A DNA stretch of 64,000 bases from Chthoniobacterales bacterium (GTDB lineage: Bacteria > Verrucomicrobiota > Verrucomicrobiia > Chthoniobacterales > UBA10450): NCBI GenBank assembly GCA_013815325.1, contig JACDGM010000003.1:12375-76374 (forward strand), read 5' to 3'. Position 1 is the stretch's first letter, and each line of letters starts with the position of its first letter. This document shows positions 1-64,000 of this stretch, piece by piece. Below the pieces are notes generated by a model. The model searched no databases. It was not told the DNA's origin and saw only the letters and a list, made by a program, of their open reading frames with translations. The position numbers and the translations under genes were made by a program.

Positions 1-3000
1 ACAGCGTGAATTTCATGGCCGGCAACCTAACGAATCAGGTGCGCGGCATTGCGAAGGTCGTAACCTCGGTCGCGAACGGTGACCTGAAGCAGAAGCTGCT
101 CGTGGAAACGAAAGGCGAAATCGCGGAGCTGGCCGACACGATCAACAGCATGACCGACACGCTCGCCATCTTTGCTGATCAGACGACCACGGTCGCGCGC
201 GAGGTCGGCGTGGAAGGAAAACTCGGCGGTCAGGCGCATGTGCCGGGCGCAGCAGGGACGTGGCGCGATCTGACCGATAACGTGAACCAGCTGGCAGCGA
301 ATCTGACGACGCAGTTGCGCGCAATTGCCGACGTCGCCACGGCGGTGACGAAGGGAGATCTCACGCGGTCCATTCAGGTCGATGCCGCCGGCGAGGTCGC
401 GTTCGTGAAAGACAACATCAACGAAATGATCCGCAATTTGAAGGACACGACGCTGCGGAACGACGAGCAGGATTGGCTCAAGACGAATCTCGCGAAATTC
501 ACCCGCATGCTACAGGGGCAAAAAGATCTGCTCACCGTCGGTCGGCTCATTCTCTCCGAGCTCGCGCCCGTCGTTTCGGCGCAGCAGGGCGTGTTCTACA
601 TGATGGATGGGAGCGTCACGGAACCGGAGCTGAAGTTGCTGGCGAGCTACGCGTATCGCGAACGCAAAGGCGTCAACAATCGCTTCCGTCTTGGCGAAAG
701 TCTGGTCGGGCAGGCGGCTCTGGAAAAGGAGCGCATTCTCCTAACGAACCTGCCGTCGGATTATGTGCAGATCAGCTCAGGCCTCGGTGAATCGAAGCCG
801 ATGAACATCGTCGTCCTCCCCATCGTCTTCGAGGGCCAGGTGAAAGCGGTGATGGAGTTGTCCTCTTTCGAACGGTTTAGCCCGACGCACCAAGCTTTCT
901 TGGATCAGCTGACGGAAAGCATCGGCATCGTTTTAAACACGATTGAAGCGAACACGCGCACGGAAGACCTGCTCAAGCAATCCCAATCCCTCGCGGGCGA
1001 GTTGCAAAGCCGGCAGGAAGAGTTGCAGCAGACGAACCAGGAGCTGGAAGAAAAGGCGCGGCAGCTCTTCGAGCAGAACGAGGAAGTCGAGCGCAAAAAT
1101 CGCGAAGTCGAGCAGGCCCGCCAGGCCCTCGAGGGCAAGGCGCAACAGCTTTCGCTCACCTCGCGATACAAGTCGGAGTTTCTCGCCAACATGTCGCACG
1201 AGCTACGCACGCCACTCAACAGCTTGCTCATTCTCGCCGACCAACTCTCCTCGAACCCCGAGGGAAATCTCACCGGCAAGCAAGTGGAATTCGCGCGCAC
1301 GATTCGCGGCTCAGGTCGTGATCTGTTGAAGTTGATCAACGACATTCTCGATCTTTCGAAAATCGAATCAGGCACTGTGAGCGTGGACGTCGGAGAAGTC
1401 CGCTTCGAGGAAATGCGCCAGACGATGGAGCGCACATTCCGTCACGTCGCCGACGGCAAAGGCGTGAGTTTCAACATCGAAATTGATCCCACCTTGCCCC
1501 GCGCAATTGAAACGGATGCGCAACGTCTCGATCAGGTCTTGAAGAATCTGTTGTCGAATGCGTTCAAGTTCACGGAACGCGGATACGTTAATTTGCGCGT
1601 CGTGCGCGCGACCGAAGGATGGAGTGACGATCGCATCTTGTTGAATCGCGCGTCGGCGGTTCTCTCGTTTTCGGTGAGTGACAGCGGCATCGGTATTCCA
1701 GTCGATAAACAGGGAACGATTTTTGAGCCGTTTCTCCAGGCGGATGGAAGCACGAGCAGGAAATACGGAGGCACGGGATTGGGGCTTGCCATTAGCCGTG
1801 AACTCGCGCGGCTCCTCGGCGGTGAAATTAAGATTGAGAGCGAAGAGGGTCGCGGCAGTACGTTCACTCTCTTTCTCCCCGAGACCTACACGCCGGCAGT
1901 TCTGCAAAGAGTGCCGGCTGCGGCTATCGCAACGCTGCCTCACCCGCCTCCCGCGGAATCGGCTGACATGCCGGGGGACGTTTCCATTCCGGATGACCGT
2001 GGCAATATTCTCCCCGGCGAGCAGTCGATTCTGATCATCGAAGATGATCACAACTTCGCGCAGTGGTGCCTCGATTTGGCCCACGCGCAGGAATTCAAGG
2101 CAATCGTGACACCACGCGGTCAATCTGCACTGGCGCTTGCGCGTGAGTTCGCGCCCACCGCGATCTCTCTCGATATCAGCCTCCCGGACGTGGATGGATG
2201 GAAGGTGCTGGAGCGGCTGAAATCCGATCTGACTACGCGGCACATTCCGGTCTTCATCATTTCGGTGGCCGAAGAGCCGCGTAACGCGCTCAAGTATGGC
2301 GCCGTCGATTTTCTGACCAAACCGGTCGACCAGGCGGGAGTGGAGAATCTTCTCCGCCGTGTGCGCAAGATGGCAGAAACCGCAGCGAAAGAATTGCTCC
2401 TGATCGAAGACGACGAAACGCAACGTAACAGCATTCGAGAACTGATCGGGAACGAGACTGCGCATATTGTCGACGCAGCGACCGCAGAGCAAGGATTGGA
2501 GGCGCTGAGCCGTCAGCCATTCGATTGCGTGGTGCTTGACCTGATGTTGCCCGACATCTCCGGTTTCGACCTGATCCAGAAGATCCGGACGGAGCACGCG
2601 CGGCTGCCGATCATTGTTTATACCGGCAAAGATTTGTCCGCGGAAGAGGAAGAGAAGCTGAATCGTGTTGCGCAGACGGTGATCGTGAAAGATGTGCGCA
2701 GCCCGGAGCGACTCTTCGATCAGACGGCGCTTTGGCTGCACCGGGACGTCTCCAAGCTACCCGAGATGAAGCGCACAATGCTGAAGAAATTGCACGATCC
2801 CGATGCGGTTCTCGCCGGCAAGAAGGTCCTCATCGTGGATGACGATATCCGCAATATTTTTGCCATGACGAGCATGCTGGAGCGCTACAAGATGGACGTG
2901 CTCTCTGCCGAAACCGGCCAGGCGGCGATTGCGTCGCTGCGAAAGACCGACGGCGTCGATCTCGTCTTGATGGATATCATGCTGCCCGAGATGGATGGTT

Positions 3001-3185
3001 ATCAAACGATGCAGGCGATCCGCAAAATGTATGGCTTCGAACAGTTGCCGATCATCGCGCTCACGGCCAAGGCCATGAAAGGCGACCGCGAAAAGTGCAT
3101 CGATGCGGGCGCGAGTGACTACATCGCCAAGCCAGTCGACACCGAGCGCCTGCTCACACTCCTACGCAACTGGCTGCACCGCTGA
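1..3185 (+). CDS. Hybrid sensor histidine kinase, 5' end outside window (HAMP repeats - GAF-like - coiled coil - HisKA - HATPase_c - three receiver domains)
   Basis: ORF 6..3185 stays open to the window edge. It has repeated HAMP-like units ([25 protein letters not shown]; [25 protein letters not shown]), H-box [10 protein letters not shown] and G-box [13 protein letters not shown]. Three receiver modules follow ([27 protein letters not shown] ... KP). Confidence 0.9.
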
Positions 3186-5331
3186 TGGCGCTTCCAATCC
3201 AGAGCACCGGGGCCGCACCCGCGGACGAAAAGGTCAACATCCTGATCGTCGACGATCGTCCCGACAAGCTCCTCGCGCACGAAACGATCCTCGCGGACCT
3301 GGATCAGAATCTCGTCCGTGCAACCTCCGGACGCGACGCCTTGCGTTGTCTTCTGCACCAGGATTTCGCGGTCATCCTTCTCGACGTGAACATGCCAGGC
3401 ATGGATGGGTTCGAGACCGCTGCGCTTATCCGGCAACGGCCCCGATCCGAGACGACTCCCATCATCTTCATCAGCGCGGTCAACGACACCGAGAACCACG
3501 TCTCGCGCGGTTACTCGTTAGGCGCGGTGGATTACATCCTCACCCCGGTGGTCCCGGAGATTCTTCGCGCCAAGCTCGCGGTCTTCGTCGACCTCTATAA
3601 GAAGACCGAACAGATCAAACGTCAGGCCGAAGAGCGGTCGGTTTTCTTCCGTGAGCAAGCCGCCCGCGCGGAAGCCGAAGCCCGACAGGAGCGTCTGGGC
3701 TTTCTCGCCGAAGCGAGCAACGTGCTCGCTGGTTCACTCGATTTCGAAGAGACCTTCGAGAATCTAGCGGGTCTGCTTGTGCCACGATTGGCGGATTTCT
3801 GTGCCATCGAAATCGCGGATAAAGATGGCGCTCTTTACGACGTTGCAGTCGCACATCGTGTCGCGACGGAACAGGCGAAGCTCAACAAGCTGGATGCACA
3901 ATCTCCTGTCGCCAGACTGGCCCGACGCATGTGTATGCGAGTCTACCACAGCGGACAGTCTGAACTTTGCTGTGAAGTTGATCAAAGGATTCTGAGGGAG
4001 CTCTTCGGGCAAGAAGTTGATCTCGTTCTGACTCGACCCTCTGCGTTCTTCGCGGTCCCGATCCGCGCCCGAGGTCGAGTGCTAGGGGCCATGACTCTGG
4101 TGAACGACAGCATCGAGCGCTCCTGCGGGCCAAGTGAACTATCCCTGGCCGAAGAACTGGGACAGCGGGCGGCGCTCGCCCTTGAAAATGCTCAACTCTA
4201 CCAAGCTGCTCAGAAAGCCCTCAGCGAAGCCGAGCGCGCGAACTTGGCCAAAGATCGTTTCCTCGCGATGCTTAGCCACGAGTTGCGCACACCGTTGACT
4301 CCTGTCCTGACCTCCGTCCTCGCGCTGGAGACCGACGCGAATATTTCGTCCGAAGCGCGCGACTCACTGCAGATGATTCGACGTAATGTCGAGCTGGAAG
4401 CGCGATTAATCGACGACCTCCTCGACCTAACGAGGATCAGTAAAGGCAAAGTGCAGTTAAGCCTCGAGCACGTAGACGCGCATATCTTGTTGCTTAGCGC
4501 GCTCGAGATTTGCCAGTCCGAGATCGCGAACAAAAAGCTGAAGCTGGAGACGGACCTGGCCGCGTCCAAAGTCGATCTGCTCGCCGATCCAGCGCGGTTA
4601 CAGCAGATTTTTTGGAACCTGATCAAGAACGCGGTCAAGTTTACGCCGGAATTCGGTCATCTTACGATCAGCACCATGAACGACGAAGAGGGTCTGTTGC
4701 GCGTGAGGATTATCGATAGCGGCGTCGGAATCGATGCAGAATCGCTCCCCAAGATCTTCAAGGCATTCGAGCAAGGCGAACGGACCACGACGGGCGGGCT
4801 GGGCCTCGGGCTCGCTATAACCAAAGCGCTGGTTGAAACCCATGACGGCCGCATCACCGCGGAGAGTGCCGGACGCGGCAAGGGAGCTACTTTTACGGCT
4901 TATTTGCCGGTGGCCGAAGGTGCGAGCTCTCAAGCTACGAAATGCCTTCCGCTTTCGGACGGCGAGCGAAAGTCGATGCGGATTTTGCTGGTCGAAGACC
5001 ACGAGACACGAACCGCTCGCTCACCAACCTTCTACGGCGGCGTGGCTATTATGTACGGTCGGCGAATAGCATCAGCTCGGCCGTGCAATGCGCGGCCGAC
5101 CAGCCGTTCGACCTCCTCGTTAGCGATATCGGGTTACCGGACGGGACTGGGATTGATTTGATGGCGAGACTGAATACGGAGCACGCCATGGTTGGCATTG
5201 CTCTGACGGGCTTCGGGATGGAGGAGGATGTGCGCAGAAGTCGCGAGGCCGGTTTTCGTGAACACCTCGTGAAGCCGGTCGACCTCAACAAACTTGATGC
5301 GGTGATTCAGGACGTTGCTCTTTCAAGATAA
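3185..5331 (+). CDS. REC-GAF-HisKA-HATPase_c-REC hybrid histidine kinase, reading frame broken near 5005
   Basis: The ATG overlaps the upstream stop (TGATG, 3183-3187). Domains: N-terminal receiver (ILIVDDRPDK...LDVNMPGMDG), H-box [23 protein letters not shown]. The C-terminal receiver continues in another frame (ORF 4942..5331: DTNRSLTNLLRRRGY...LLVSDIGLPDGTG...KP). The frames join if one G is restored in GAG(G)ACACG at 5003-5010. Length 2147 nt is 3n+2. Confidence 0.8.
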
Positions 5332-5945: not shown

Positions 5946-7589
5946 ATGATTCAACAAAACGTTTTTCTCGATCGTCGGGGCGTCTGGGCATTCGCCCTCG
6001 GCTGTATCGGCGTCACCATCGGCGTGCTCCTCCACATCCCGATGTTCTGGATGGGCCACAATAACGGCTTCATCCTTTACGGGATGCCGATGGATCCCGG
6101 CATGATCTTCGGCATGTACCTGATCATCGCGGGTGTGATCGCGGCTGCCTACGGACTCCTCCCGAGCAAGGCGGCCTACGATGCGGTCGTGAGCTCGCGC
6201 ATCACGGTGGTCGCCCCGGAGGACGCGCCGCTGAACCGCGCGCACTGGATATTGATGGCTACACTCGTGGTCGCTCTCATCATCGACGTGATGAAACCCG
6301 CCACCCTCGGATTCACGATTCCGGGGATGATTAAGGAATATCAAACTACCAAGGCGCACGCGTCACTGGTTCCGTTTTCCGCGCTCGTCGGGACCGCAAG
6401 TGGTTCGATTCTTTGGGGAATTCTGGCCGATCTCTACGGCCGGAAAGCAGCCATCCTCCTCTCGGCCGTCGTCTTCATCGGGACTTCAATTTGCGGCGCA
6501 ATGCCTTCGCTGAACTGGAACATCGGGATGTGTTTTCTGATGGGATTCGGGGCGGGCGGCATGCTCCCCGTGACCTATGCCTTACTCGCGGAAATGATGC
6601 CTTCCAAGCACCGCGGCTGGTCACTCGTGTTAGTCGGCGGTCTCGGCGCCGTCGGTGGATACGTTGTCGCGAGCGGTTTCGCAGCCACCCTCGAGCCAAT
6701 TTTTAGCTGGCGCATCCTCTGGCTGATGAATCTTCCCACCGGGCTCCTCCTCCTCGGCTTGGGACGGTTCATCCCGGAATCGGCCAAGTTCCTTCTCGCC
6801 CGGGGACGCAACGCCGAGGCGCACGCGGTCATGCGGCGCTTCGGGACGATTAGCCACAAGCTGGAAGAGGGGGAGGAAGACGAATCGGATTTGATCGCGC
6901 ACGGTCACCATCATCATAGTGCCGAGGAAGCCGCCGAAGAAGCGAAGCTCTGGACCCCGGCGCTGATCGGTAAAACCGTCGCCCTGACGGTCGCAGCGCT
7001 CTCCTGGGGCCTAATCAACTTCGGGCTCCTGCTCTGGATACCTAACGACCTGGTGGCGAAAGGCTATTCCATGGCACTCTCGAGTAAGCTCCTTGCCGAA
7101 TCAGCCTTGATCGCTTTCCCAACCGTCTTCCTTTGCACCTATCTTTATAGCCGCTGGAGCACGAAATGGGCGCTAAGTGCTTTCATCGCTCTGACGCTTT
7201 TCGGCTTGCTCTGGGTCTTACGCCTGGAGACTCATGTCGGCGGTAACCCGGTCTGGCCGGTAGGTCTGCTGATCATCGGGAGCAATGGGATCATTGCGAT
7301 TCTCCTTCCCTACGCGTCGGAGAGTTATCCGGTGAAGATTCGTGGCCGTGCCACCGGATGGGTCGCAATGTTCACCAAGGGTGGTGGTGTCCTGGCGCAA
7401 AGCTTGAGTATTATGGCGCTCGCCCCATCGCTCGGTATAACTGCCATAGGCATTATGGTGCCGGTGGTGATCTCGTTGGCGTTGTTCATTCGCTACGGAA
7501 CTGAGACGCGCGGCTTAGATCTGCGGCACCTCGAGTCATCAATTCGGCCGCGCTCGCCCTCGAAATGGGACACACCGACAGTGGGATGA
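5946..7589 (+). CDS. MFS transporter
   Basis: The profile is polytopic and hydrophobic. It carries the MFS loop signature ILADLYGRKAAILLSAVVF and a His-rich cytoplasmic loop (HGHHHH). The last ~25 codons run into the integrase stump, so the true C-terminus is uncertain. Confidence 0.85.
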   Translation: MIQQNVFLDRRGVWAFALGCIGVTIGVLLHIPMFWMGHNNGFILYGMPMDPGMIFGMYLIIAGVIAAAYGLLPSKAAYDAVVSSRITVVAPEDAPLNRAHWILMATLVVALIIDVMKPATLGFTIPGMIKEYQTTKAHASLVPFSALVGTASGSILWGILADLYGRKAAILLSAVVFIGTSICGAMPSLNWNIGMCFLMGFGAGGMLPVTYALLAEMMPSKHRGWSLVLVGGLGAVGGYVVASGFAATLEPIFSWRILWLMNLPTGLLLLGLGRFIPESAKFLLARGRNAEAHAVMRRFGTISHKLEEGEEDESDLIAHGHHHHSAEEAAEEAKLWTPALIGKTVALTVAALSWGLINFGLLLWIPNDLVAKGYSMALSSKLLAESALIAFPTVFLCTYLYSRWSTKWALSAFIALTLFGLLWVLRLETHVGGNPVWPVGLLIIGSNGIIAILLPYASESYPVKIRGRATGWVAMFTKGGGVLAQSLSIMALAPSLGITAIGIMVPVVISLALFIRYGTETRGLDLRHLESSIRPRSPSKWDTPTVG

Positions 7590-7885
7590 TCTTCGCGCAC
7601 TATCGCCAGCTCGTTTGGCCGAAAGAAGCGGCGCAGTATTGGAACATCCGGCCAGCGACTACGGAAAAGATCGTTCCCATGCTGGGCAAATCCAACGCCG
7701 AAATAGAGGAATTCCTGCGCACAGCAAAAGTCATTTCGTGTGCCGAACAAGCGGGCGGACGCGTCATGATCGAGCTGGGGAGTCGCTTAGGTTGTGGCGC
7801 ACGGATAGTCAATCCGTTGCCGCACGAGGCAGCGCTATTCTGTTGCCGTCAGGTTGCCGGTTCGGCGAAATCCTCGAAACCGTAA
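7505..7885 (+). pseudogene. Tyrosine recombinase (integrase) C-terminal stump
   Basis: The frame is open from 7505. ...VINSAALALEMGHTDSGMIFAHYRQLVWPKEAAQYWNIRP resembles the extreme C-terminus of phage-type integrases (LGH...HY with the catalytic Tyr). No core or N-terminal domains precede it. Confidence 0.55.
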
Positions 7886-7905
7886 AACGGACTCACCGGA
7901 TGACT
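7859..7905 (+). repeat. Diverged copy (about 72% identity by eye) of the 5501-5547 repeat unit
   Basis: GGTTCGGCGAAATCCTCGAAACCGTAAAACGGACTCACCGGATGACT compared with GTTTCGGTGAAATCACTTTAACCGGGAAACCGACTCACCGCATGACC. Confidence 0.5.
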
Positions 7906-8334
7906 GCTGCGCGCCTCGCCAGCGTCCGTTCTGGGATGGGGAGCGCAGTCACATCACCCTGCCAGGCCGATAAAAGCGCGCTAGCGAAGCACTGAGTGCG
8001 TCGTTGAGCCTCTGCCAAGCGTTCGCGCGCCCAAACAGCTCCTTTTGAATCGGTTCGGCAACGTTTGCGGGAGACGAAACAACGAAAACTGACAGAGCGG
8101 CAGGAAGTCCGGCTCGAGTTTGGCGCCGAGTCTGACCACTACCGGCAGAATCCTCGACGAAACATTATTCCCCAAATTTCCGGAAGATTTATCTCGACAG
8201 GCAGAGAGCAGCCGCCCCAACCTCAAATCGTCGAATAGATCTGGATCGGACGCGGACGTTTATCCTGGGAGTTTCCGCCCTTCTTCAGACCTGTAGTCGC
8301 AGGTCAAACCACACCAGATGAAAGAAACGTCCTT

Positions 8335-9536
8335 ATGTACGAACAAATTCAGATCAAAAAACTAAAACCGTCAGGCAGAAATTTATTCGACTGGTCGCCT
8401 TCGCGACGCGGTTGCATCCCCGCGGCGCTTGCGCTCGCCCTTGCATGCATTGTGGTTTCGCCCCCAGCACGGGCAGTAACGCCAGCACCGGACGGAGGTT
8501 ACCCCAACTTCAACACCGCAGAAGGGGATAATGCTCTGTTCAGCCTTACAACCGGCAGCTACAACACGGCCGTCGGTGCTGATGCGCTCCTGTACAACAC
8601 AGCCGGCGTCGGAAACACAGCCAACGGTACCAGTGCGCTCTTTAACAACACAACCGGCGTCGAAAACACGGCCAACGGTTCTAGTGCGCTCTATAGCAAC
8701 ACAATCGGCTTCAAAAACACGGCCAACGGTTCTAGTGCGCTCTACGTAAACACAACCGGCGTCGAAAACACGGCCAACGGTTTTTTGCGCTTTATGGCAA
8801 CACGATCGGGCGCAACAACACGGCCACCGGTCAGAACGCGCTGCGTGGCAACACAACCGGTTCGTTCAACATTGCGCTAGGCGATAACGCGGGTTTCAAC
8901 CTGACTACAGGCGATCACAACATAGAAATAGGAAATAAAGGCGTCGCCGGTGAGGCCAAGACAATTCGCATTGGCACCAAAGGAACAAACACAAATACCT
9001 ACATCGTCGGCATCAATGGGGTGGTAGTAGCAGGGGGCGTAGGTGTAATTGTCGATACCAACGGCCACTTAGGGACAGTCGTTTCCTCGGCGTGCTTTAA
9101 GGAAGCAATCAAGCCAATGGATAAAGCAAGCGAAGGGATTCTCTCGCTCCAGCCGGTGACCTTTCGCTATAAGCACGAGCTTGATCCACAAGCCATCCCG
9201 CAGTTCGGCCTGGTCGCCGAGCAAGTGGCAAAGGTGAACCCTGATCTAGTGGCCCGGGACGACCAAGGTAAGCCATACACTGTTCGTTACGAAGCAGTGA
9301 ACGCGATGTTACTTAATGAGTTCCTGAAAGAGCACCGCAAGGTGGAGACACTGGAAACGGTTGTTGCCGAGCTGCAGTCAGGCGATACGAAGCAAGCAGC
9401 GACCATCGCCCAGCAGCAGGATGAGATCAAGACGTTGATTGCGAATCTCAAATTACAGGCCGGAGAAATCAAAAAGGTCAACGAAGAGGTCGAAGTAAGT
9501 AAAGCTGCTTCGCGCCGGGTGGTTGAGACTCGGTAA
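8335..9536 (+). CDS. Tail-fibre-like / Hep_Hag-repeat surface protein with C-terminal intramolecular-chaperone (peptidase S74-like) domain; frame broken at a T6 run
   Basis: It has a signal-like N-terminus and about-14-aa NTANG..AL..NT.G repeats. After the break it reads ...TIRIGT...TYIVGI.... The C-terminus (SSACFKEAIKPMDKASEGILSLQPVTFRYKHELDP...QFGLVAEQVAKVNPDLV...VRYEAVNAMLLNEF) is typical of tail-fibre/endosialidase chaperone domains. ORFs 8335..8880 and ..9536 join if the T6 run at 8781-8786 is T7. Length 1202 nt is 3n+2. Confidence 0.75.
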
Positions 9537-9556
9537 AGCTTTAGCCGCAGAGAGGA

Positions 9557-11383: not shown

Positions 11384-11485
11384 GCGAGGCCGGGCTTTCC
11401 AACTCTGCTTCCCGATGCTGCGGCGGCGATGCGCAGCCGTTATCGGATTCATCAAACCGAGGCCGCACATTTTACAGGGAAGGCC

Positions 11486-12094
11486 CTAACGATCTTCTTC
11501 CGGTAGTCTTGGGCGCGCTTCCTCAATCAACTTCCGACTCTCCGCGTCGGACAAGTAGCGGATTTGGATCACGGGTGCGGCGACAGGGTTTAGCGGCGCG
11601 CCATCCCGGCCGGTTATCTCCGAGCGGTTGACCGGCATCCCGAGGCTCAGCCGGGCGAGTGAATCGCCGATCTGAAGCATGCGTACGGCATCTCCAAAGC
11701 CCCAGCGGGCGGGTTCGCGAATGATATTCTTTCCATCCTCGCTGACTGACTCAGTTTCCAGCGGAAGGCGAGCATCTCGCGGGCCTTGGCCGCGAGGGCG
11801 AGAAACATTTGCCAGGATGTTTCCTCGACTTCGCCCTTCCGCCGTTCGCGCTCCAAGGCGAGGGCTGTTTTTGCAGCCAGGTCCGCTTCCACTGACCGCT
11901 CGTGCTCCGTGAGCTGCCATGTCCGCACGCGGGCCTTCCAGCGAAACCGTACTCCAGAGCCGCGTCATTCTGACAGTCGTCTGGCACTGTTTTGCCACTG
12001 CAGCATGAGAACGCTTTTCGCGCATTTCAGCGAAAGTGCGGAACGCAGAGTAGGCGACTGCGCTCTCGTTAGGTAATCGTGTTGTTGCGATCAT
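11486..12094 (-). pseudogene. Phage-like DNA-binding / small-terminase-like protein, apparently with two compensating frameshifts
   Basis: The N-terminus (SAVAYSAFRTFAEMREKRSHAAVAKQ...RLWS) and C-terminus (PLETESVSEDGKNIIREPARWGFGDAVRMLQIGDSLARLSLGMPV...) look protein-like. The middle of this frame is Arg/Gly/Pro junk. The overlapping frame (11647..11928) reads a plausible coiled coil (WQLTEHERSVEADLAAKTALALERERRKGEVEE...). Confidence 0.4.
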
Positions 12095-14583: not shown

Positions 14584-14621
14584 GTTTCCGTTCGGCTCGT
14601 TAGGCTAACCATTCGGTTTCG

Positions 14622-17327: not shown

Positions 17328-17355
17328 GCACCTTCCCTACAAGCGAAAGAAATTC

Positions 17356-50666: not shown

Positions 50667-51163
<497 letters not shown>

Positions 51164-53292: not shown

Positions 53293-53310
53293 GCGACTTG
53301 CCGCACCGCA

Positions 53311-53433
53311 TTGTCATCCTGAGCCGCGAAGACGGCGAAGGACCTCACAAGCGTCTTTGTGCGTTAGGAGCAAATCACAATCTGAAGTGGCCTGCGAGAT
53401 CCTTCGCTGCGCTACGCCGGCTCAGGATGACAA
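53311..53433. repeat. Inverted-repeat element, family 2 (GTCATCCTGAGC... type)
   Basis: TTGTCATCCTGAGCCGCGAAGACGGCGAAGGACCTC faces GAGATCCTTCGCTGCGCTACGCCGGCTCAGGATGACAA. Confidence 0.75.
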
Positions 53434-53480
53434 ATCACGAAGGGCAGCGGCAATAAAGAGGAGGACCGACTCGTTAGGCA

Positions 53481-55079: not shown

Positions 55080-55834
55080 GGAAGAAAATCGATCGGACGT
55101 GCGGCCGGCGGAGCAACGAGGAGGAGGCGTTCGATCGCCCGGGCCTCTGCCGGCGTGTCGACTCCCGGAGAGCCGCCTTTGGTCACGACCACGTGAATCT
55201 TTACGCCATTCTGTAGCGCGCGCAATTGTTCCAACCCTTCCGCCTTTTCGAGCGGCGACGGCCGCCAGCGGACGAAACGCAAGAGTAACTCACGGCGGTA
55301 CCCGTAGATGCCTTGATGGCGAAAATAAGCGGCCCTTTCACGAGCGAAGGGGATCGGACTGCGGGAAAAATATAGCGCGCAATTTCGCCGGTCGAGGACA
55401 GTTTTGACCTGGTGCGGCGACTGCGCGTCGGCCGCATTCTCGAATGGATGAACGGCGGTGATCATCTCAATTTGCGGATCGCGCTGCATTTGCCTAACGA
55501 GGCGATCGATCAGCTTTGGGTCAATCAGCGGCTCGTCGCCCTGGATGTTGATGAAGTGCGGAACATCCCGCAATTTTTTGGCCACCTCGGCGATTCGATC
55601 GGTCCCGCTGGTGTGCTTCGAACTCGTTAGGCTGACTTCCGCTCCCCAGTCGAAAGCCGCTTCAGCGATGCGCATGTCGTCGGTCGCGATAATGACGGAT
55701 GCGAGCGTCTTCGCACGGCGGCAGCGGTCCCAGACGTGTTGAAGTAACGGCTTCCCTGCGATCCAATGGAGCGGCTTGCCCGGGAAACGGGTCGAGCCCC
55801 AACGCGCGGGAATGATGCCGGCGGTTTTCGTCAT
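55076..55834 (-). CDS. kdsB: 3-deoxy-manno-octulosonate cytidylyltransferase
   Basis: GIIPARWGSTRFPGKPL, NIQGDEP. Confidence 0.88.
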   Translation of the reverse strand: MTKTAGIIPARWGSTRFPGKPLHWIAGKPLLQHVWDRCRRAKTLASVIIATDDMRIAEAAFDWGAEVSLTSSKHTSGTDRIAEVAKKLRDVPHFINIQGDEPLIDPKLIDRLVRQMQRDPQIEMITAVHPFENAADAQSPHQVKTVLDRRNCALYFSRSPIPFARERAAYFRHQGIYGYRRELLLRFVRWRPSPLEKAEGLEQLRALQNGVKIHVVVTKGGSPGVDTPAEARAIERLLLVAPPAARPIDFLP

Positions 55835-55924: not shown

Positions 55925-56470
55925 CTACTCGTGTAAGCCGAGAATGATCTCGGCCGCTGCGGACAGATCTTCCGCCATCCAGTTCGGCGCGGCGTGGCTC
56001 TCCCTAGCGCCGTAACCGGTTCTCACCAGAATCGTGCGCACTCCAGCATTACGTCCGCATTCGATGTCGATCGCTTTGTCTCCGATGAAAAAGCAACGCG
56101 CCAGGTCAAGATCGTGATCACGTTGCGCTTCCAGCACCATGCCCGGCGCAGGCTTGCGCCGATCTGTCGCGAGATCAGGCCGATCAGCACAAAAGTAAAC
56201 GGCGTCGAAAGTTGCGGGCAGAACCGCGCGCGCGACTTCCGCTTCCACGAGGCGGTATTGCGCTTCAGTGAAATACCCGCGCCCGATACCCGCCTGATTC
56301 GAGATGACAATGAGCCTGTAACCTTTCGCCCTTAGCCGTTGCAGGGCTTCGGGAACACCGGGAAAAATCTCCACCGCTCTCGGGTCGGCGCAGTAATTGA
56401 CCTCGCGCATCAGTGTCCCGTCGCGGTCGAGAAAAACCGCCGCCGCGGATTCGTTAGGCGCCATTATCAT
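55925..56470 (-). CDS. gmhB: D-glycero-D-manno-heptose 1,7-bisphosphate phosphatase (HAD-IIIA)
   Basis: AVFLDRDGTL, ISNQAGIGRG, FIGDKAIDIECG. Confidence 0.8.
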   Translation of the reverse strand: MIMAPNESAAAVFLDRDGTLMREVNYCADPRAVEIFPGVPEALQRLRAKGYRLIVISNQAGIGRGYFTEAQYRLVEAEVARAVLPATFDAVYFCADRPDLATDRRKPAPGMVLEAQRDHDLDLARCFFIGDKAIDIECGRNAGVRTILVRTGYGARESHAAPNWMAEDLSAAAEIILGLHE

Positions 56471-57464
56471 CCTCGAAACTGGCGATCAACTCCGCCGGTG
56501 TGACCGTAGCCGTGCCTAGTTTCGCCACCACCACTGCGCTAGCGTGATTGGCAATCTCCGCCGCTTCGAACGGGGACGCGTCGCAGCAAAGCGCCAACGT
56601 AAAAAGCGCGATCGCGGTATCGCCCGCGCCCGAAACGTCAAAGACCTGTCGCGCCTTCGTGGGGATATGGTGCGGCGGCTCTCCACGTTCGAAGAGCATC
56701 ATCCCTTGCTCGCCTAACGTGATTAACAAGAGCCGGGTGTCCCAAATTTCGAGCAGCTTCGCGCCGGCTTCGAGCAGCGCGGCGTCATCCTGCGGCGGAT
56801 CAACCGGATCGGTCGCAGGAAGACCCGCCGCCTGCAACGCTTCGCTCCGGTTGGGTTTAATCGCGGTGATGTTCTTCCAAGGAAGCGACTGGCGCGGATT
56901 AGGATCGGCGGTGACGATTTTCGCGGCGGCGTTGATCTGGGCGGAGAGTTGCCTGACGAGATCGGCACTGAGAAAACCCTTGCCGTAATCTTCGAAAATA
57001 ACGGCGTCCAATTCCGGCAGAATGGCGCGGAGGCTGAGCGAGATTTTGTCAATCTGCGATGGCGTCGGCTCGCGAAATCGCTCGCGATCGACTCGCACCA
57101 CTTGTTGATGCCGGGCCACAATCCGCGTCTTCACGATCGTGCGGAAATCGGGATCCTGGAGCACGAGCGCGGTATCGATTCTCCGCTCTCGCAAAAGCCC
57201 GAGCAGCTGTTCTCCCCCCGCGTCGAGGCCGACCGTGCCGATAACCGCGACGCCCTCGATGAACTCCCGCAGATTGCGCGCGACATTGGAGGCGCCGCCG
57301 GGGTAGGAAGATTCACCTGTCACCTCGACCACCGGCACCGGCGCTTCGGGTGAGATGCGCCCGACTTTGCCCCAAACAAACTCATCGAGCATGAGGTCGC
57401 CCACCACCGTGACGCGTTTGCCGGCGGCACGTGCGAGGATCTCATGCAAGCGTTCCAGTTTCAT
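56454..57464 (-). CDS. hldA: D-glycero-D-manno-heptose-7-phosphate kinase (RfaE domain I, PfkB family)
   Basis: VTVVGDLMLDEFVWGKVGRISPEAPVPVV; DVSGAGDT. Confidence 0.8.
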   Translation of the reverse strand: MKLERLHEILARAAGKRVTVVGDLMLDEFVWGKVGRISPEAPVPVVEVTGESSYPGGASNVARNLREFIEGVAVIGTVGLDAGGEQLLGLLRERRIDTALVLQDPDFRTIVKTRIVARHQQVVRVDRERFREPTPSQIDKISLSLRAILPELDAVIFEDYGKGFLSADLVRQLSAQINAAAKIVTADPNPRQSLPWKNITAIKPNRSEALQAAGLPATDPVDPPQDDAALLEAGAKLLEIWDTRLLLITLGEQGMMLFERGEPPHHIPTKARQVFDVSGAGDTAIALFTLALCCDASPFEAAEIANHASAVVVAKLGTATVTPAELIASFEDDNGA

Positions 57465-57631: not shown

Positions 57632-58426
57632 ATGAGATCTTTCTTTAACCTTTTTTTAGCTGGCATTTGGGTAGCGAGCGTGGTCCAGGCGAAGGCGGCG
57701 GATGCTCCGCGGCGCATCGATGTGAAACGGCTTTCCAAGACGATCGAGGACGTGGTTGTGCCTTTGCCTAACGAAATCTTCGGAGCGCTGAACAAGCTCG
57801 ACAGCGTGAACTGGAAGGAGTTCGTGCGCACGGACAAAGGAAGCAATTTTACGGAGCGCCCGCGCATCGCGCTGCTTCTCGGGGCGACAATCGCGGACGG
57901 CTTCATCGCGGTCCAGGCCGAGGACGCTCCGAGCGTGAAGGAGATCGGCCAGCGGGTGGTGAACCTGGCCAAGGGCATCGGCGTCGGCAACTCGATTGTG
58001 CCTCACGCCAAGGCGATCACCGAGGCAGCGGATCGGCGCGATTGGAACGGCGTGCGGCAGGAGCTGGATCGCACGCAGAACAGTGTGCAACAGGCGATGA
58101 ATGAAGTGCACGACGAAAAGCTTTCGCAGCTCGTTAGTCTGGGCGGCTGGCTGCGCGGGACGCAGGTCCTCACCTCGGTGGTGGATCGGCATTTCTCTGC
58201 CGACGGCGCGGAGCTGCTGCATCAGCCGGACCTGCTGGAATATTTCCAGCGCAAACTGGCGAACATGCCGGAGTTCAATGTTCCTTTACTGGGCCAGATT
58301 CGAAATTCTCTTGTGGAAGTGAAACCGCTGATCGAGGCCCAGAGTCCGATTTCCGCGGCCTCGGTGAAGAAAATCCACCAGATCACGAGCCGGCTGGACG
58401 AGAGGATTGTAACTCGGACGCCATGA
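57632..58426 (+). CDS. Secreted hypothetical protein
   Basis: Signal peptide MRSFFNLFLAGIWVASVVQAKA. No family recognised. Coupled to the next ORF. Confidence 0.6.
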   Translation: MRSFFNLFLAGIWVASVVQAKAADAPRRIDVKRLSKTIEDVVVPLPNEIFGALNKLDSVNWKEFVRTDKGSNFTERPRIALLLGATIADGFIAVQAEDAPSVKEIGQRVVNLAKGIGVGNSIVPHAKAITEAADRRDWNGVRQELDRTQNSVQQAMNEVHDEKLSQLVSLGGWLRGTQVLTSVVDRHFSADGAELLHQPDLLEYFQRKLANMPEFNVPLLGQIRNSLVEVKPLIEAQSPISAASVKKIHQITSRLDERIVTRTP

Positions 58427-59059: not shown

Positions 59060-60043
59060 ATGACTGAAACGCGCACGCTCCAATTTGAAAACGCGCGCGC
59101 CGTGCAGGCGCTCTACGCCAATGATCTCAAATTGCTCAAGAATCTCGAAGAATCGTTAGGCGTGAAAGTCACCACGCGCGACGGCTGGATCAAGGTCGAG
59201 GGCGAACCAGCGCAGATCGAGAAAGCGGAACGCGTTTTCACCGAGCTGGAGAACGCACGGCAACGTGGCACGGATATCCAGCGGCACGAATTTAATTATG
59301 CGCTTAACTCTGTGAACGAAGCCCGCGAAGACAATCTTGGCGACCTCGTCGCGACCAAGATCGTAACCTCGACCAGAAAACCGCCGATCGTCGCCCGCAC
59401 TTTAGGTCAGCGGCATTACCTCGAGGCCATCCAAACTCACGACATTGTATTCGGAATCGGCCCGGCGGGGACCGGCAAGACTTATCTCGCTGTTGCCATG
59501 GCGGTCTCGGCCTTGAAAAAAGAGCAGGTCGATCGCATCATCCTCACCCGGCCCGCAGTGGAGGCGGGCGAAGCGCTTGGATTTTTGCCGGGGGATTTGC
59601 AGCAAAAAATCACGCCTTATTTGCGCCCGCTCTACGATGCGCTGCACGATATGCTCGAGCCGGAAGAGCTGGAGCGTTTCGTCGCGCGCGAGACGATCGA
59701 GATCGCCCCGCTCGCTTACATGCGCGGCCGCACCTTGAGCAACGCCTTCGTCATTCTCGATGAAGCGCAAAACACCACGCGCGAACAAATGTTCATGTTC
59801 CTGACCCGCATCGGGCCGCGCTCCAAATGCGTCGTGACCGGCGATGGCACCCAGATCGATCTCCCGCCTAACAAACGCTCCGGACTGCTCGAAGCGCTCC
59901 AGGCACTCAAGGATGTGCCCGGGATCGGCTTCGCTTATTTCAACGATCGCGATGTCGTGAGGCACGAGCTCGTCCGCGCGATCATCAATGCCTATCAGTT
60001 ACACCGTTCGCCCGCCAATACGGGCGGCTCGGGCCGGAAATAG
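59060..60043 (+). CDS. phoH: PhoH-like ATPase
   Basis: Walker A GPAGTGKTYLAVAMAV, ILDEAQN. Start set at the ATG at 59060 (MTETRTLQF). Confidence 0.88.
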   Translation: MTETRTLQFENARAVQALYANDLKLLKNLEESLGVKVTTRDGWIKVEGEPAQIEKAERVFTELENARQRGTDIQRHEFNYALNSVNEAREDNLGDLVATKIVTSTRKPPIVARTLGQRHYLEAIQTHDIVFGIGPAGTGKTYLAVAMAVSALKKEQVDRIILTRPAVEAGEALGFLPGDLQQKITPYLRPLYDALHDMLEPEELERFVARETIEIAPLAYMRGRTLSNAFVILDEAQNTTREQMFMFLTRIGPRSKCVVTGDGTQIDLPPNKRSGLLEALQALKDVPGIGFAYFNDRDVVRHELVRAIINAYQLHRSPANTGGSGRK

Positions 60044-60048
60044 CACCG

Positions 60049-61686
60049 ATGTTCGACTTCCTGCGCCGCACCCAGCTGGTTAAAAAAGGCCTCGCCTCAG
60101 GCAAGAAAAGACGGCGGCGTCCCTCGAATGAAATCCTGCGTAACCTCGAGCACGCGCCTTGGATGAAGATCGTCATCTTCGCCGCCTTCATCGCCGGCTT
60201 GGCCTCGCTCATCTTTAGCGGGCAACAACCTGAGCCGACGAAAAACTTCGTGATTGCGTTGCTCTTTTTCGTCACCGCAGTGGCGCAGCTTTGGATCAAT
60301 CAGCCCAAGACTTTTCTGCGCAATTCACGCGTTTTTCTCGTCTTCGGCATCATTTTCTTTCAACTCGCGATTACCCGGCTGCTCCTCGTCTTGTGCAACA
60401 GCGGCCTCTTCGTTCTGCTCAAGCCGGAGACGGCCTGGCTGATCGCGCCTTATGCTTTCGCGCCCCTCGTCCTCTGCGTGCTCCTCGGGCGCAATCACGG
60501 CCTTTACGGTGCTGTGTTCGTTAGTCTGTGGGGTAGCATCCTCGGCAACAAAATGGATGCGCCGATGCTTGTGAACGGCCTCATCAGCGGCTTCACCGCG
60601 GTTTATCTGACGCTGCAGGTGCGCCGCCGCAGCCGCCTCATTCGCGCGGGGCTTTGCGTCGGGCTTGCCATCTGGCTACTCTCGCTCACCTTCGGGCTCA
60701 TCGGTCCAATTAATCTTTTCAACCCGGGCGCGACCGATTGGAGCATGATCGGTCTTCAGAGCGCCCTCGCGATCGGGAATGGAATCGTCACGGCGATGCT
60801 GGTGGGCGGTGCGCTGCCCATTCTCGAGCATTTGTTTCAAATCACGACCGACATCTCCTGGCTCGAAGCCTCTGACTTGAATCACCCGCTCCTGCGCCGG
60901 ATGACCATCGAAGCACCCGGCACTTATCATCACAGCCTCGTCGTCGCGAACCTTGCCGAATCAGCCGCCGAAGCGATCGGCGCCAACGCCACGCTCTGCC
61001 GCGTCTGTTCGTATTTTCACGACGTCGGGAAACTCGTGAAGCCGGAATATTTCACCGAGAACATGAACTTCGAACGAAACCCCCACGACGATCTCGCGCC
61101 GACGATGAGCGCGCTCATCATCATCGCGCACGTCAAGGAAGGAGTCGATCTCGCCCTTAAGCACGGCCTTAATCAAGAGGTCATTGATGTTATTCAACAG
61201 CATCACGGCACGTCGCTCGTCTTTTACTTCTACAAGCGCGCCCTGCAGCACCTCGAAGACGCGCGCGCCGGCGGCAAGATCATGAAGATGCGCGAGGAAG
61301 ACATCCCGGAGGTTTCGGAGGAAAACTTCCGCTACAGTGGGCCTCGGCCGCAGACCAAAGAGAGTGCTATCATCAGCCTCGCCGACATGGTGGAAAGCGC
61401 TTCGCGCAGTCTGGAAAAACCGACTCCGGCGAAAATCGAGCAACTCGTGAATGACTTGATCGACCAACGGCTGGCCGACCATCAGCTCGACGAATGCGAA
61501 CTGACTTTGCGCGAGCTGCGCACCATCGCCGAGCGCTTCCGCTTTACCCTCATGAATATGCTCCACACCCGTATTGCCTATCCGAAGGAAGGCAAGGCGA
61601 CGAGCGGACGCGCGGAAGGCGAACGCCCCGGCGTCATCATGGGAACGAAACGACCGGCCTCCGCGCCGCCGGTCTCGGCCGCCTAA
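60049..61686 (+). CDS. 7TM-HD membrane phosphohydrolase (PgpH/YqfF-like)
   Basis: Multi-TM N-terminal half, then an HD domain (HHSLVVANLAE...YFHDVGK). Confidence 0.8.
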   Translation: MFDFLRRTQLVKKGLASGKKRRRRPSNEILRNLEHAPWMKIVIFAAFIAGLASLIFSGQQPEPTKNFVIALLFFVTAVAQLWINQPKTFLRNSRVFLVFGIIFFQLAITRLLLVLCNSGLFVLLKPETAWLIAPYAFAPLVLCVLLGRNHGLYGAVFVSLWGSILGNKMDAPMLVNGLISGFTAVYLTLQVRRRSRLIRAGLCVGLAIWLLSLTFGLIGPINLFNPGATDWSMIGLQSALAIGNGIVTAMLVGGALPILEHLFQITTDISWLEASDLNHPLLRRMTIEAPGTYHHSLVVANLAESAAEAIGANATLCRVCSYFHDVGKLVKPEYFTENMNFERNPHDDLAPTMSALIIIAHVKEGVDLALKHGLNQEVIDVIQQHHGTSLVFYFYKRALQHLEDARAGGKIMKMREEDIPEVSEENFRYSGPRPQTKESAIISLADMVESASRSLEKPTPAKIEQLVNDLIDQRLADHQLDECELTLRELRTIAERFRFTLMNMLHTRIAYPKEGKATSGRAEGERPGVIMGTKRPASAPPVSAA

Positions 61687-61689
61687 CGA

Positions 61690-62454
61690 GTGGAGACCTT
61701 CGCGATCGAGCGGGTGCGCGAGTACGGCGCCCGGACCGCGGTCGTGCTCGGCTCAGGCCTTCACTCGTTAGGCGGTAATCCGCCGCACGAGCGAATCATT
61801 CCCTACCAAGAGATAGCCGACCTCCCGCGCTCGAGCGTTAAAGGACACGCCGGCCGCTTTGTCCTCGGCGCGATCGGCGCGGCGCCCGTTGTTTTCGCGC
61901 AAGGGCGCGTCCATCTCTACGAAGGCTACAGCGCGCGGGAGATCACTGCGGGGGTTCGTTTCCTCGCTCGCGCCGGCATCAAGCGCCTCCTTTTGACTAA
62001 TGCCGCTGGCTCGTTGAACACGGATTTTTCGCCGCCATCGTGGATGATGATCACCGATCAGTTGAACCTTTGCGGCGCCTCACCTTTGTCCGGTGGAAGC
62101 AATTTTGTCGACATGACCGATGCCTATGCACCCGCCTGGCGGGAACAATTCGAGGCCGCCGCGAGGGAAAAGCATCTAACGCTACACCAAGGCGTTTACG
62201 CGGGGCTGCGCGGTCCGCAGTACGAAACGCCGGCGGAAGTGAAGATGCTGCGCATACTGGGCGCCGACGCCGTCGGCATGTCTACGATTTGCGAAGCCAT
62301 TCAAGCGCGCGCGCTAGGCTTGGAGGTGGCTGGTCTTTCCTGCCTAACGAATTGGGCTGCGGGCCGAAATTGGTCGCCGCTCGCGCACAGCGCAGTCTTG
62401 GCGGCCGGAGATTCCGCGGCTGGCGTTTTACAGTTACTGGAGGCGGTTTTGTAG
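61690..62454 (+). CDS. Purine nucleoside phosphorylase (PNP/MTAP family)
   Basis: GHAGRFVLG, GPQYETPAEV, MLRILGADAVGMST; GTG start. Confidence 0.8.
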   Translation: METFAIERVREYGARTAVVLGSGLHSLGGNPPHERIIPYQEIADLPRSSVKGHAGRFVLGAIGAAPVVFAQGRVHLYEGYSAREITAGVRFLARAGIKRLLLTNAAGSLNTDFSPPSWMMITDQLNLCGASPLSGGSNFVDMTDAYAPAWREQFEAAAREKHLTLHQGVYAGLRGPQYETPAEVKMLRILGADAVGMSTICEAIQARALGLEVAGLSCLTNWAAGRNWSPLAHSAVLAAGDSAAGVLQLLEAVL

Positions 62455-63660: not shown

Positions 63661-63728
63661 CGCGGACAAGCTAGGGGAGCTAGTCGGGTTGGCAAGCTGG
63701 AACAGTGGAGCGCGGGTTGCGCGGTCGC

Positions 63729-64000
63729 TCAGCAGGCTTGCTGCAATTCGTAAACGGGGCCGCAAGTCGCCTGACTGGATAGAATGGTCTGCTGAACGAT
63801 TCGGCTGAGCGCGGAGGCTTCGTAAGGCTTGGCGATAACACCGCGAAATCCGAAGTCCTCGTAGCGGCTCATGGTTGCGTCAGTGGCGTATCCGCTGGAC
63901 ACGATCGCGTTCACCGTGGGATCGATCTTGAGCAAAGCCTTGAGGGCATCTTTGCCGCCCATGCCGCCGGGCAGGGTAAGGTCGAGAATGACCAGATCGA
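63729..64000 (-). CDS. Response-regulator receiver domain protein, N-terminus outside window
   Basis: ...[37 protein letters not shown]...GVIAKPY. The ORF is open to the window end. Confidence 0.7.

Follow-up and report, generated by a model that had tools for sequence, protein, structure and literature searches.

A nine-nucleotide word that saturates a stretch of Chthoniobacterales DNA and shares its core with Gemmatirosa: a candidate DNA-uptake signal in soil bacteria

The window and its repeated word

The window analyzed here is a 64-kb stretch of soil-metagenome DNA from a member of the Chthoniobacterales (Verrucomicrobiota), and the element under study is a 9-nt word, GCCTAACGA, whose copies are scattered through its genes. 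Genes were called by periodicity of G+C at third codon positions and then checked against Pfam, NCBIfam, and public gene calls. Among them are MoeA, LigD, SpeA, MetG, PurK, Sua5/TsaC, and PyrG, names on which Pfam agrees with an initial annotation of this DNA. In the metagenome assembly GCA_020064125.1, a gene encodes a protein identical to one in the window, and the contig is base-for-base equal across the overlap.

We scored all 6-12-mers of the window against order-3 and maximal-order Markov models and compared the word and its core with dinucleotide-preserving shuffles. GCCTAACGA occurs in 56 exact copies, 28 on each strand, compared with 0.23 ± 0.51 (largest 3) in the shuffles and an order-3 Markov expectation of 0.96, and its core CCTAACG occurs 87 times (46 on the plus and 41 on the minus strand) where 3.93 ± 1.69 copies were expected. 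It is the sole strongly over-represented word in the window, with no other approaching it, and in the Markov scan the excess saturates at 9 nt, longer words being no commoner than the 9-mer predicts. The enrichment is ~60-240-fold and the density ~0.9-1.1 per kb. The logo of the 87 aligned sites reads G(75%)-CCTAACG-A(86%), and information in the 15 nt on each side is below 0.13 bit per position, both in the window and in a pooled set of 32 word-rich loci (n = 613; 598 kb, all in one syntenic orientation); the copies are therefore single words rather than pieces of a longer repeat. Beyond 12 kb the core recurs every 0.64 kb and the full word every 0.95 kb, whereas the first 12 kb hold one full word against 10.5 expected (Poisson P = 3e-4). 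The initial annotation had given the same counts, which our search reproduced exactly, and its further claims of unconserved flanks, a spacing of ~0.65 kb from 12 kb onward, and mostly genic copies (44 of the 56 full words lie inside called genes) were borne out.

The copies are listed below with position, strand, class, and context; "full" denotes an exact match to GCCTAACGA and "core-only" an exact match to CCTAACG, and frames are named by the residues that they encode.

25..33, +, core-only ACCTAACGA: sensor kinase, sense, L-T frame
739..747, +, core-only TCCTAACGA: sensor kinase, sense, L-T frame
3515..3523, -, full: hybrid His kinase, antisense, TCG TTA GGC (S-L-G)
4425..4433, +, core-only ACCTAACGA: hybrid His kinase, sense, L-T frame
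7040..7048, +, core-only ACCTAACGA: MFS transporter, sense, P-N-D/E frame
11484..11492, +, core-only CCCTAACGA: provides TAG stop of hypothetical open reading frame (ORF) 11486-12094(-)
12066..12074, -, core-only ACCTAACGA: hypothetical ORF, sense
12160..12168, -, full: intergenic
13790..13798, +, full: intergenic
14597..14605, -, full: intergenic; direct pair with the 14619 copy, 22 nt apart
14619..14627, -, full: intergenic
15171..15179, +, full: small ORF, sense, L-T
15562..15570, -, full: MoeA, antisense, S-L-G
15719..15727, +, full: MoeA, sense, L-T
16246..16254, -, full: MoeA, antisense, S-L-G
16391..16399, -, full: MoeA, antisense, V-R (AGG)
17321..17329, -, full: provides TAG stop of DUF892 gene
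18238..18246, +, core-only ACCTAACGA: LigD, sense, L-T
18451..18459, +, core-only CCCTAACGA: LigD, sense, L-T
19628..19636, -, full: squalene/phytoene synthase, sense, P-N-D/E
20001..20009, -, full: squalene/phytoene synthase, sense, L-T
20826..20834, +, full: DUF362, antisense, S-L-G
20965..20973, -, full: DUF362, sense, P-N-D/E
21047..21055, +, full: DUF362, antisense, V-R
21476..21484, +, core-only CCCTAACGA: radical SAM/HemN-like, sense
22263..22271, +, full: radical SAM/HemN-like, sense, P-N-D/E
23876..23884, -, full: SpeA, antisense, S-L-G
24877..24885, +, full: SpeA, sense, P-N-D/E
25110..25118, -, full: intergenic
25404..25412, +, core-only CCCTAACGA: GDSL lipase, antisense
25797..25805, +, core-only CCCTAACGA: GDSL lipase, antisense
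26828..26836, -, core-only GCCTAACGG: GDSL lipase, sense
27486..27494, -, full: HAD hydrolase, sense, L-T
28518..28526, +, full: PDZ protein, antisense, S-L-G
29551..29559, -, core-only TCCTAACGA: HtrA-like protease, sense
29753..29761, +, core-only GCCTAACGT: HtrA-like protease, antisense
31003..31011, +, full: hypothetical 390-aa gene, antisense, S-L-G
31749..31757, -, full: hypothetical 390-aa gene, sense, L-T
32562..32570, +, full: hexapeptide transferase, antisense, S-L-G
32647..32655, -, core-only GCCTAACGT: hexapeptide transferase, sense
33057..33065, -, core-only GCCTAACGG: ABC transporter, sense
33256..33264, +, full: ABC transporter, antisense, V-R
33364..33372, -, core-only ACCTAACGA: ABC transporter, sense
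33944..33952, +, full: ABC transporter, antisense, S-L-G
36660..36668, +, full: PurB, sense, L-T
37848..37856, -, full: provides TAG stop of TMEM175-like gene
38605..38613, +, core-only CCCTAACGA: MetG, sense
39408..39416, -, full: MetG, antisense, S-L-G
39706..39714, -, core-only GCCTAACGG: intergenic
40174..40182, +, full: beta-CASP nuclease, sense, P-N-D/E
40855..40863, +, full: beta-CASP nuclease, sense, P-N-D/E
41691..41699, +, core-only GCCTAACGG: exonuclease III, sense
41823..41831, +, full: exonuclease III, sense; site kept in 5/6 orthologues
42233..42241, +, core-only GCCTAACGT: LMF1/DCC1-like, sense
42475..42483, -, full: LMF1/DCC1-like, antisense; site kept in 6/7 orthologues
43056..43064, +, full: LMF1/DCC1-like, sense
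43469..43477, +, full: LMF1/DCC1-like, sense
44150..44158, +, core-only TCCTAACGC: intergenic
44833..44841, -, core-only ACCTAACGA: holin-X-like, antisense
46200..46208, -, full: PilT, antisense, V-R
46794..46802, +, core-only TCCTAACGA: PilT, sense
47115..47123, -, core-only CCCTAACGA: PilT/PilU, antisense
48232..48240, -, full: provides TAG stop of PilT/PilU gene 47084-48238
48567..48575, -, core-only ACCTAACGA: subtilase, sense
48720..48728, -, full: subtilase, sense
50774..50782, +, full: PurE, V-P-N-E; present in 17/33 orthologues
51447..51455, -, full: PurK, antisense, V-R with rare AGG; 12/43 orthologues
51564..51572, +, full: PurK, sense; 13/43 orthologues
52067..52075, -, core-only GCCTAACGG: PurK, antisense; core in 20/43 orthologues
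52329..52337, +, full: Sua5/TsaC, sense; 14/17 orthologues
52601..52609, +, core-only CCCTAACGA: Sua5/TsaC, sense
52655..52663, +, full: Sua5/TsaC, sense
52883..52891, +, full: Sua5/TsaC, sense
53286..53294, -, full: provides TAG stop of Sua5/TsaC gene
53361..53369, -, core-only TCCTAACGC: intergenic
53471..53479, -, full: intergenic, immediately downstream of PyrG stop
54254..54262, -, core-only ACCTAACGG: PyrG, sense
55035..55043, +, full: PyrG GVVSSLGKG motif, TCG TTA GGC; same in 29/34 species
55492..55500, +, full: CTP_transf_3 gene, antisense
55624..55632, -, full: CTP_transf_3 gene, sense; 11/18 orthologues
56451..56459, -, full: PfkB TAA stop and codons 4-7 of overlapping HAD gene; 14/18 orthologues
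56712..56720, +, core-only GCCTAACGT: PfkB, antisense
57766..57774, +, full: hypothetical, L-P-N-E; 16/34 orthologues, the rest CCG/CCC AAC/AAT
59153..59161, -, full: PhoH, antisense
61681..61689, +, full: provides TAA stop of 7TM-HD gene
61765..61773, -, full: nucleoside phosphorylase, antisense
62342..62350, +, full: nucleoside phosphorylase, sense

Reading frames and orientation

One strand of the word contains TAA and the opposite strand TAG, which leaves just two frames open in each orientation; all four stop-free frames are occupied in the window and in the 32 pooled loci. In the pooled set the frame xxG CCT AAC GAx (P-N-D/E) holds 108 copies, TCG TTA GGC (S-L-G) 93, xGC CTA ACG Axx (L-T) 66, and xTC GTT AGG Cxx (V-R) 63, and in 38 of the 439 copies the stop-containing frame provides the gene's own stop codon. 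In the window at least six genes owe their TAA or TAG stop to a full word (at 17321, 37848, 48232, 53286, 56451, and 61681). Sense and antisense placement is even in the pooled loci (188 and 180 copies, respectively); 84% of copies are genic, and the 16.2% that are intergenic compare with a non-coding fraction of 16.4%. The word uses CTA, TTA, and AGG, which are rare codons in genes whose third positions are ~73% G+C. When synonymous codons were shuffled within each gene of the window, preserving the protein and the codon usage, including the codons supplied by the word itself, 1.4 ± 1.1 genic full words were obtained (maximum 5), compared with 44 in the actual sequence. The excess thus acts at the level of DNA and overrides codon preference.

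The order of orientations along the window is random (32 runs compared with 29 expected, z = 0.8). Over the 32 loci the orientations total 240:199 without heterogeneity (P = 0.9), and orientation correlates with neither GC skew nor gene-strand bias. Gaps between neighboring words in the Chthoniobacterales loci are exponential, with a coefficient of variation (CV) of 1.03. These data bear on the idea that the word is a polar motif read directionally by RecBCD/AddAB or FtsK, such as Chi, the FtsK-orienting polar sequences (KOPS), or the architecture-imparting sequences (AIMS). These too are short, asymmetric, over-represented chromosomal words, and uneven orientations do occur, at 12:3 in one Chthoniobacterales locus (L025) and at 30:10 in one 50-kb window of Gemmatirosa, a second lineage described below. 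They are, however, co-oriented with replication and few-fold enriched, whereas GCCTAACGA is non-polar and 60-240-fold enriched, an excess 10-50 times that of known Chi or KOPS motifs. Balanced orientation in the window, in the 32 loci, and in Gemmatirosa (131:119), together with the lack of a link to skew, leads us to reject roles of the Chi/KOPS type; the polar reading is largely refuted and in our judgment very improbable. The initial annotation had likewise called the word unlike Chi and KOPS, with equal orientations and no correlation with gene direction.

Distribution and conservation in two phyla

Relatives of the window were taken from PurK matches among species-representative genomes and comprise metagenome-assembled genomes (MAGs) from many independent soil and peat studies; L-numbers are labels of the compared loci. 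The word is in strong excess in ~30 Chthoniobacterales species, in most of which GCCTAACGA ranks first or nearly first among over-represented 9-mers; the density of the core 7-mer in these species is ~0.5-2.3 per kb. Syntenic proteins of these word-rich species are mostly ~80% identical to those of the window, and four, including L052 and L053, are just ~70-74% identical. In a deeper tier of relatives (~68-76% identity) the core is mostly residual at 0.05-0.5 per kb, the exceptions being L052 and L053, which are rich, and L028, L044, and L062, which have nearly none. The word is absent from the outgroup DNA compared, namely that of a Chthoniobacter sp., other Verrucomicrobiota, Acidobacteria, Planctomycetes, and Alphaproteobacteria, and a replacement word sought in the word-poor Chthoniobacterales was not found. 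The 32 rich loci contain 439 exact copies of GCCTAACGA, and one-mismatch forms are also far above chance in them: GACTAACGA is the commonest with 77 copies, followed by ACCTAACGA (55), GCCTAACGG (40), and GCCTGACGA (37), and positions 3, 4, 6, and 7 of the word are nearly invariant. In L006 (Spartobacteria MAG JBDTVP010000025.1) GACTAACGA has 8 copies and the canonical word 7, so that this form is possibly a dialect there. Two other repeats were seen in the compared loci, a G/C homopolymer run of ~39 nt in L005 (31 overlapping 9-mers, possibly an assembly artefact) and a long tandem repeat of the AACCAGCAG type in L069, an unrelated Verrucomicrobiae MAG of 47% GC.

We followed individual sites through protein-guided codon alignments of 15 syntenic genes, from which the orthologue counts listed above derive. 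Some sites are ancient and widely shared (PyrG in 29 of 34 species, Sua5 in 14 of 17, the PfkB/HAD junction in 14 of 18) and many others are singletons, which indicates retention as well as turnover. Conditioned on the word being present in the window, third-codon identity to word-rich relatives is 70.5% within the word and 51.5% in the 30-nt flanks (n = 688), whereas for word-poor relatives the values are 42 and 44%; the silent-site excess is thus confined to word-rich relatives, pointing to constraint only where the word is abundant. The GVVSSLGKG motif of PyrG illustrates this, with TCG TTA GGC in 29 species while every adjacent silent site varies; the five PyrG genes without the word read TCT CTC GGG, TCG CTT GGT, TCG CTC GGC, or TCC CTG GGC, or are gapped. 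Six species (L003, L008, L009, L012, L023, and L025, at ~13.68 kb) have a second word 27 nt from the one in SSLGKG, forming a conserved direct pair GCCTAACGA-N18-GCCTAACGA within CTP synthase. Maintenance of the word has also cost amino acid changes: in PurE, carriers have V-P-N-E where most word-poor relatives and outgroups have P-S/H/Y/F-E, and the change of S/H to N completes the word, and in PurK carriers have exchanged E/D for I/V/L and encode arginine with AGG. In particular lineages drive or selection actively keeps the word in place, and in others it decays.

The alignments also bear on whether the copies are a functionless by-product, that is, fragments of mobile repeats (repetitive extragenic palindromes or miniature inverted-repeat transposable elements), a bias in peptides or codon pairs, or an assembly artefact. 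A few local tandem arrays in Gemmatimonadaceae do contain the word. Against this, the flanks are unconserved, copies fill four frames on two strands, the codon-shuffle null gives 1.4 genic words rather than 44, word sites align to word-less orthologues without indels, and the word recurs in assemblies made independently in many studies as well as in the genome of an isolate. We regard each of these explanations as refuted and give them the slightest chance of any considered here.

The core of the word extends beyond the Verrucomicrobiota. When metagenomes were scanned for pairs of words no more than 30 nt apart, the matches listed were mostly chance pairs on short contigs; they also included Chthoniobacterales-like contigs and soil contigs of 67-81% G+C with several copies each (L132-L230; L182, L187). 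On the high-GC contigs a PilW-like minor pilin is 73% identical to a Gemmatirosa kalamazoonensis protein and a MacB-type permease is closest to proteins of Gemmatimonadaceae MAGs, which places these contigs in the Gemmatimonadaceae. The 8-nt core GCCTAACG is ~100-fold enriched in this family, including the cultured G. kalamazoonensis KBS708 (L238 and L240-L248; plasmids NZ_CP007130.1 and NZ_CP007129.1). Eight 50-kb samples (400 kb) of the 1.04-Mb plasmid 2 of KBS708 contain 250 copies of GCCTAACG, oriented 131:119, and it is their top over-represented word (in one window 32 copies compared with 0.29 in shuffles); a ninth sample, from plasmid 1, has 29. Although one window is skewed 30:10, a two-phase orientation pattern was not seen across the eight windows around plasmid 2. 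The Gemmatirosa logo, (C/T)-G-CCTAACG, shows no bias toward A at the 3' end, and copies are mostly intragenic, often as xCG TTA GGC, in a genome of 73% G+C. They are spaced a little more regularly than expected at random (CV 0.82, n = 270). Roseisolibacter agri (L239), of the same family, has no copy in 21 kb. A tblastn search of Chthoniobacterales proteins against ~500 kb of Gemmatimonadaceae DNA, a small screen, found nothing above 48% identity and so no recent transfer. The common core (C/T)GCCTAACG suggests either horizontal transfer of whatever reads it or convergence.

Two local clusters were noted in Gemmatimonadaceae DNA. In L149 the leader region of a Gemmatirosa-like PilW-family minor pilin gene (945-1919, minus strand), MPMMPNEWPNERPNERPNG..., which precedes a G|FTIVE prepilin cleavage motif, has four copies (three full 9-mers and one GCCTAACGG) with a 12-nt period, and two further core copies adjoin a GC-rich hairpin downstream of the gene; this cluster may be due to chance, as the contig was selected for paired words. 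In L245 an intergenic array at 47547-47690 (KBS708 plasmid 2, ~697.5 kb) consists of ten 15-nt units, four of GGCGGGATGCCTAAC and six of GGCGGGATGCCTAGC, upstream of a divergent 814-aa ORF that also contains the word in codons 4-7.

Patchy spread across phyla is typical of mobile methyltransferase genes, and the word might accordingly be a methyltransferase or modification target kept abundant by linked selection or repair, in the manner of the cyanobacterial highly iterated palindrome HIP1 (GCGATCGC). HIP1 is the sole other class of word with a similar genic excess and silent-site conservation, being likewise octamer-scale and enriched about a hundred-fold. Elhai in 2015, and Xu, Lawrence, and Durand in 2018, are said to have linked it to methyltransferases. 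HIP1, however, is palindromic with a known methylation site, whereas GCCTAACG(A) is asymmetric with no known methyltransferase link; restriction targets are normally avoided rather than enriched, and a contiguous, fully specified, asymmetric target of 8-9 nt is atypical of Type I, II, IIG, and III methyltransferases. We therefore consider this origin unlikely.

A candidate uptake signal

Taken together, these data suggest that GCCTAACGA is a genome-wide recognition word acting on DNA rather than on RNA or protein, and most likely a signal for DNA uptake of the kind represented by the DNA uptake sequence (DUS) of Neisseriaceae and the uptake signal sequence (USS) of Pasteurellaceae. The combination of excess, density, use of both strands and of all open frames, cost to the proteome, clade-specific variants, and an apparently lower density outside the core genome favors this reading, and sequence-biased uptake followed by recombination is to our knowledge the only process that yields such a combination, a genomic signature that we know so far only from the uptake sequences of Neisseria and Haemophilus relatives. 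To a signal for type IV pilus-mediated uptake, spread by transformation drive, we assign a probability of about one-half, and it is our best reading.

The proposed mechanism would start with a reader that would preferentially capture double-stranded fragments bearing the word; this could be a receptor exposed on the surface by a retractile type IV pilus or a competence protein that binds DNA in the periplasm. Captured fragments would recombine into the chromosome, and word-bearing alleles would thereby displace word-less ones, a molecular drive possibly aided by selection for uptake of DNA of the cell's own kind. The word would then accumulate wherever coding constraint permits, in four frames, stops, and spacers and in both orientations, to ~1 per kb, and once accumulated would be held against synonymous drift. 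That an uptake receptor reads the word, and that transformation drives its spread, is our inference.

The window encodes a tandem pair of pilus retraction ATPases that may belong to such a machine:

45905..47002, +, PilT-family type IVa pilus retraction ATPase (TIGR01420, 419 bits, cutoff 319; PF00437)
47084..48238, +, second PilT/PilU-family ATPase, in tandem with the first (TIGR01420, 425 bits, cutoff 319)

A motor of the PilT type drives DNA uptake in the known systems, and the pair is a candidate component here; Gemmatimonadaceae contigs rich in the word also carry a homologue of PilT and an operon of minor pilins. A published survey lists ComEC in MAGs of abundant soil Verrucomicrobia, without a link to this clade (PMC7305173, Supplementary Table 3).

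The word also appears to be sparser outside the core genome. Genes common to at least 8 loci have 0.80 copies per kb, compared with 0.40 in lineage-unique ORFs, and the word-poor first 12 kb of the window include a word-free stretch:

7050..11480, word-free stretch (no core between 7041 and 11485; GC 0.56)

The genes in this stretch, which is probably acquired DNA, encode hypothetical proteins, a protein matching Peptidase_S74 (a phage tail-fibre chaperone), and a PATR autotransporter-repeat protein. The whole word-poor, lower-GC region of ~7050-15100 is probably an integrated element; it also holds a DnaB_N-like fragment and ends at a tRNA-Ser(GCT) gene (14984-15071, minus strand). A scan of the window with Rfam and for tRNAs found that tRNA-Ser alone, and no RNA family accounts for the word. 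A paired-word scan of viral contigs gave 34 matches, of which none was rich in the word once the seed pair and local tandem repeats were set aside (sensitivity ~50% per phage), which we judged to be consistent with chance. Elsewhere in the window, one 25-kb stretch contains several genes for the processing of DNA ends: LigD with phosphoesterase and ligase domains (17418-19064), a protein with a BFN bifunctional-nuclease domain (22398-22892), a beta-CASP metallo-beta-lactamase nuclease (39731-41107), and exonuclease III (41326-42144).

The likeness to known uptake words is extensive. Like the USS (cores AAGTGCGGT / ACAAGCGGT), the word is 9 nt long and asymmetric, recurs about once per kb equally in both orientations, is mostly genic, uses all stop-free frames, shapes peptides, has enriched single-mismatch variants, and is clade-wide with subclade variants in a host that probably has a retractile type IV pilus. 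It differs in its unrelated sequence, its occurrence in another phylum with the core in a second one, the lack of AT-rich flanking segments (there is just a weak pyrimidine preference 5' of the word), and the lack of an excess in spacers or terminators. With the DUS (GCCGTCTGAA and its dialects, for which the minor pilin ComP is the receptor), it shares the excess, the density (~0.8-0.9 per kb for Neisseria DUS and Haemophilus influenzae USS), conservation of sites between species, dialect-like variants (GACTAACGA and the Gemmatirosa form without the 3' A), and an apparent depletion in lineage-unique DNA. The DUS, in contrast, lies mostly in spacers, often in inverted pairs that form terminators, and its dialects are confined to one family.

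Several observations weigh against an uptake signal. Close inverted pairs make up 1 of 407 neighbor pairs, the words overlap no terminator-like hairpins between 44 and 64 kb of the window, and spacers show no excess, whereas about half of DUS and USS lie in predicted terminators, and 70-90% of those in inverted repeats do (bioRxiv 10.1101/2025.10.24.684340). The core is common to two phyla, unlike the family-private known uptake words. PilT and PilU also serve twitching motility, and common ancestry of the sites, along with spurious "unique" ORFs, confounds the contrast in density between shared and unique genes. Full-text searches found no report of uptake sequences or natural transformation for Chthoniobacterales, Udaeobacter, or Gemmatirosa, and a 2025 survey confines uptake-enhancing sequences to Neisseriaceae and Pasteurellaceae (bioRxiv 10.1101/2025.10.24.684340). 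The initial annotation had proposed an uptake-like role, which we find supported in part; nearly every sequence-level prediction tested came out in its favor, the exceptions being the terminators or inverted pairs and the family-private core. It was also aware of no uptake sequence or other role described for this word, and our full-text searches agree, returning for the word as a genomic motif only primers or unrelated matches.

The missing terminator pairs and the core shared by two phyla lend some weight to a site for an abundant DNA-transaction system other than uptake, whose reader gene is horizontally mobile. Such a reader could be a sequence-specific nucleoid or chromosome-organizing protein, a nuclease or defence system for which the word marks self-DNA, as a non-polar counterpart of Chi, or a form of repair that turns near matches into the word. 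One mobile reader gene would easily explain a ~100-fold excess of the core in both phyla, and many sites are positionally conserved between species, Gemmatirosa spacing is somewhat even, and the association with terminators typical of DUS and USS is missing. The exponential spacing in Chthoniobacterales and a placement indifferent to genes, spacers, and stops nevertheless fit opportunistic accumulation better than placed architectural sites, and no candidate gene was found. We know of no nucleoid, partition, Noc/SlmA/MatP-type, or defence system that uses a fully specified 8-9-mer at ~1 per kb, and repair-driven biases such as very short patch repair are below 2-fold and act on 4-5-mers. We consider a system of this kind possible but doubtful.

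The uptake-like behavior itself is familiar, and what appears new, from the comparisons made here, is the word, the phyla, the absence of coupling to terminators, and the sharing across phyla. A more tentative proposal is that GCCTAACG may be the first DNA-uptake signal outside the Proteobacteria, shared by Chthoniobacterales and Gemmatirosa-type Gemmatimonadota, members of two unrelated soil phyla that are abundant worldwide; this would imply that a receptor gene moved horizontally. Sequence-specific DNA uptake is known in just two proteobacterial families of animal-associated bacteria, and whether it arose through drive or through selection for self-DNA has long been debated. Another such system of independent origin, if confirmed, would be the third and would show the phenomenon to be general. 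Known uptake words are regarded as keeping foreign DNA out, and a core shared by two phyla, yet patchy within each, offers a natural comparative experiment on the receptor and on whether the word is barrier or bridge. KBS708 is cultured and fully sequenced, so the uptake hypothesis can be tested directly. Should the word not serve uptake, an unknown system that writes a 100-fold excess in two phyla would be at least as interesting. Verrucomicrobia and Gemmatimonadetes belong to the most abundant bacteria of soils and to those least represented in culture, and an uptake signal would provide a simple sequence tag for engineering or enriching them. It would also be indirect evidence that these mostly uncultured lineages are naturally transformable; on the more tentative proposal, they may preferentially trade DNA within a "word community" that crosses phyla.

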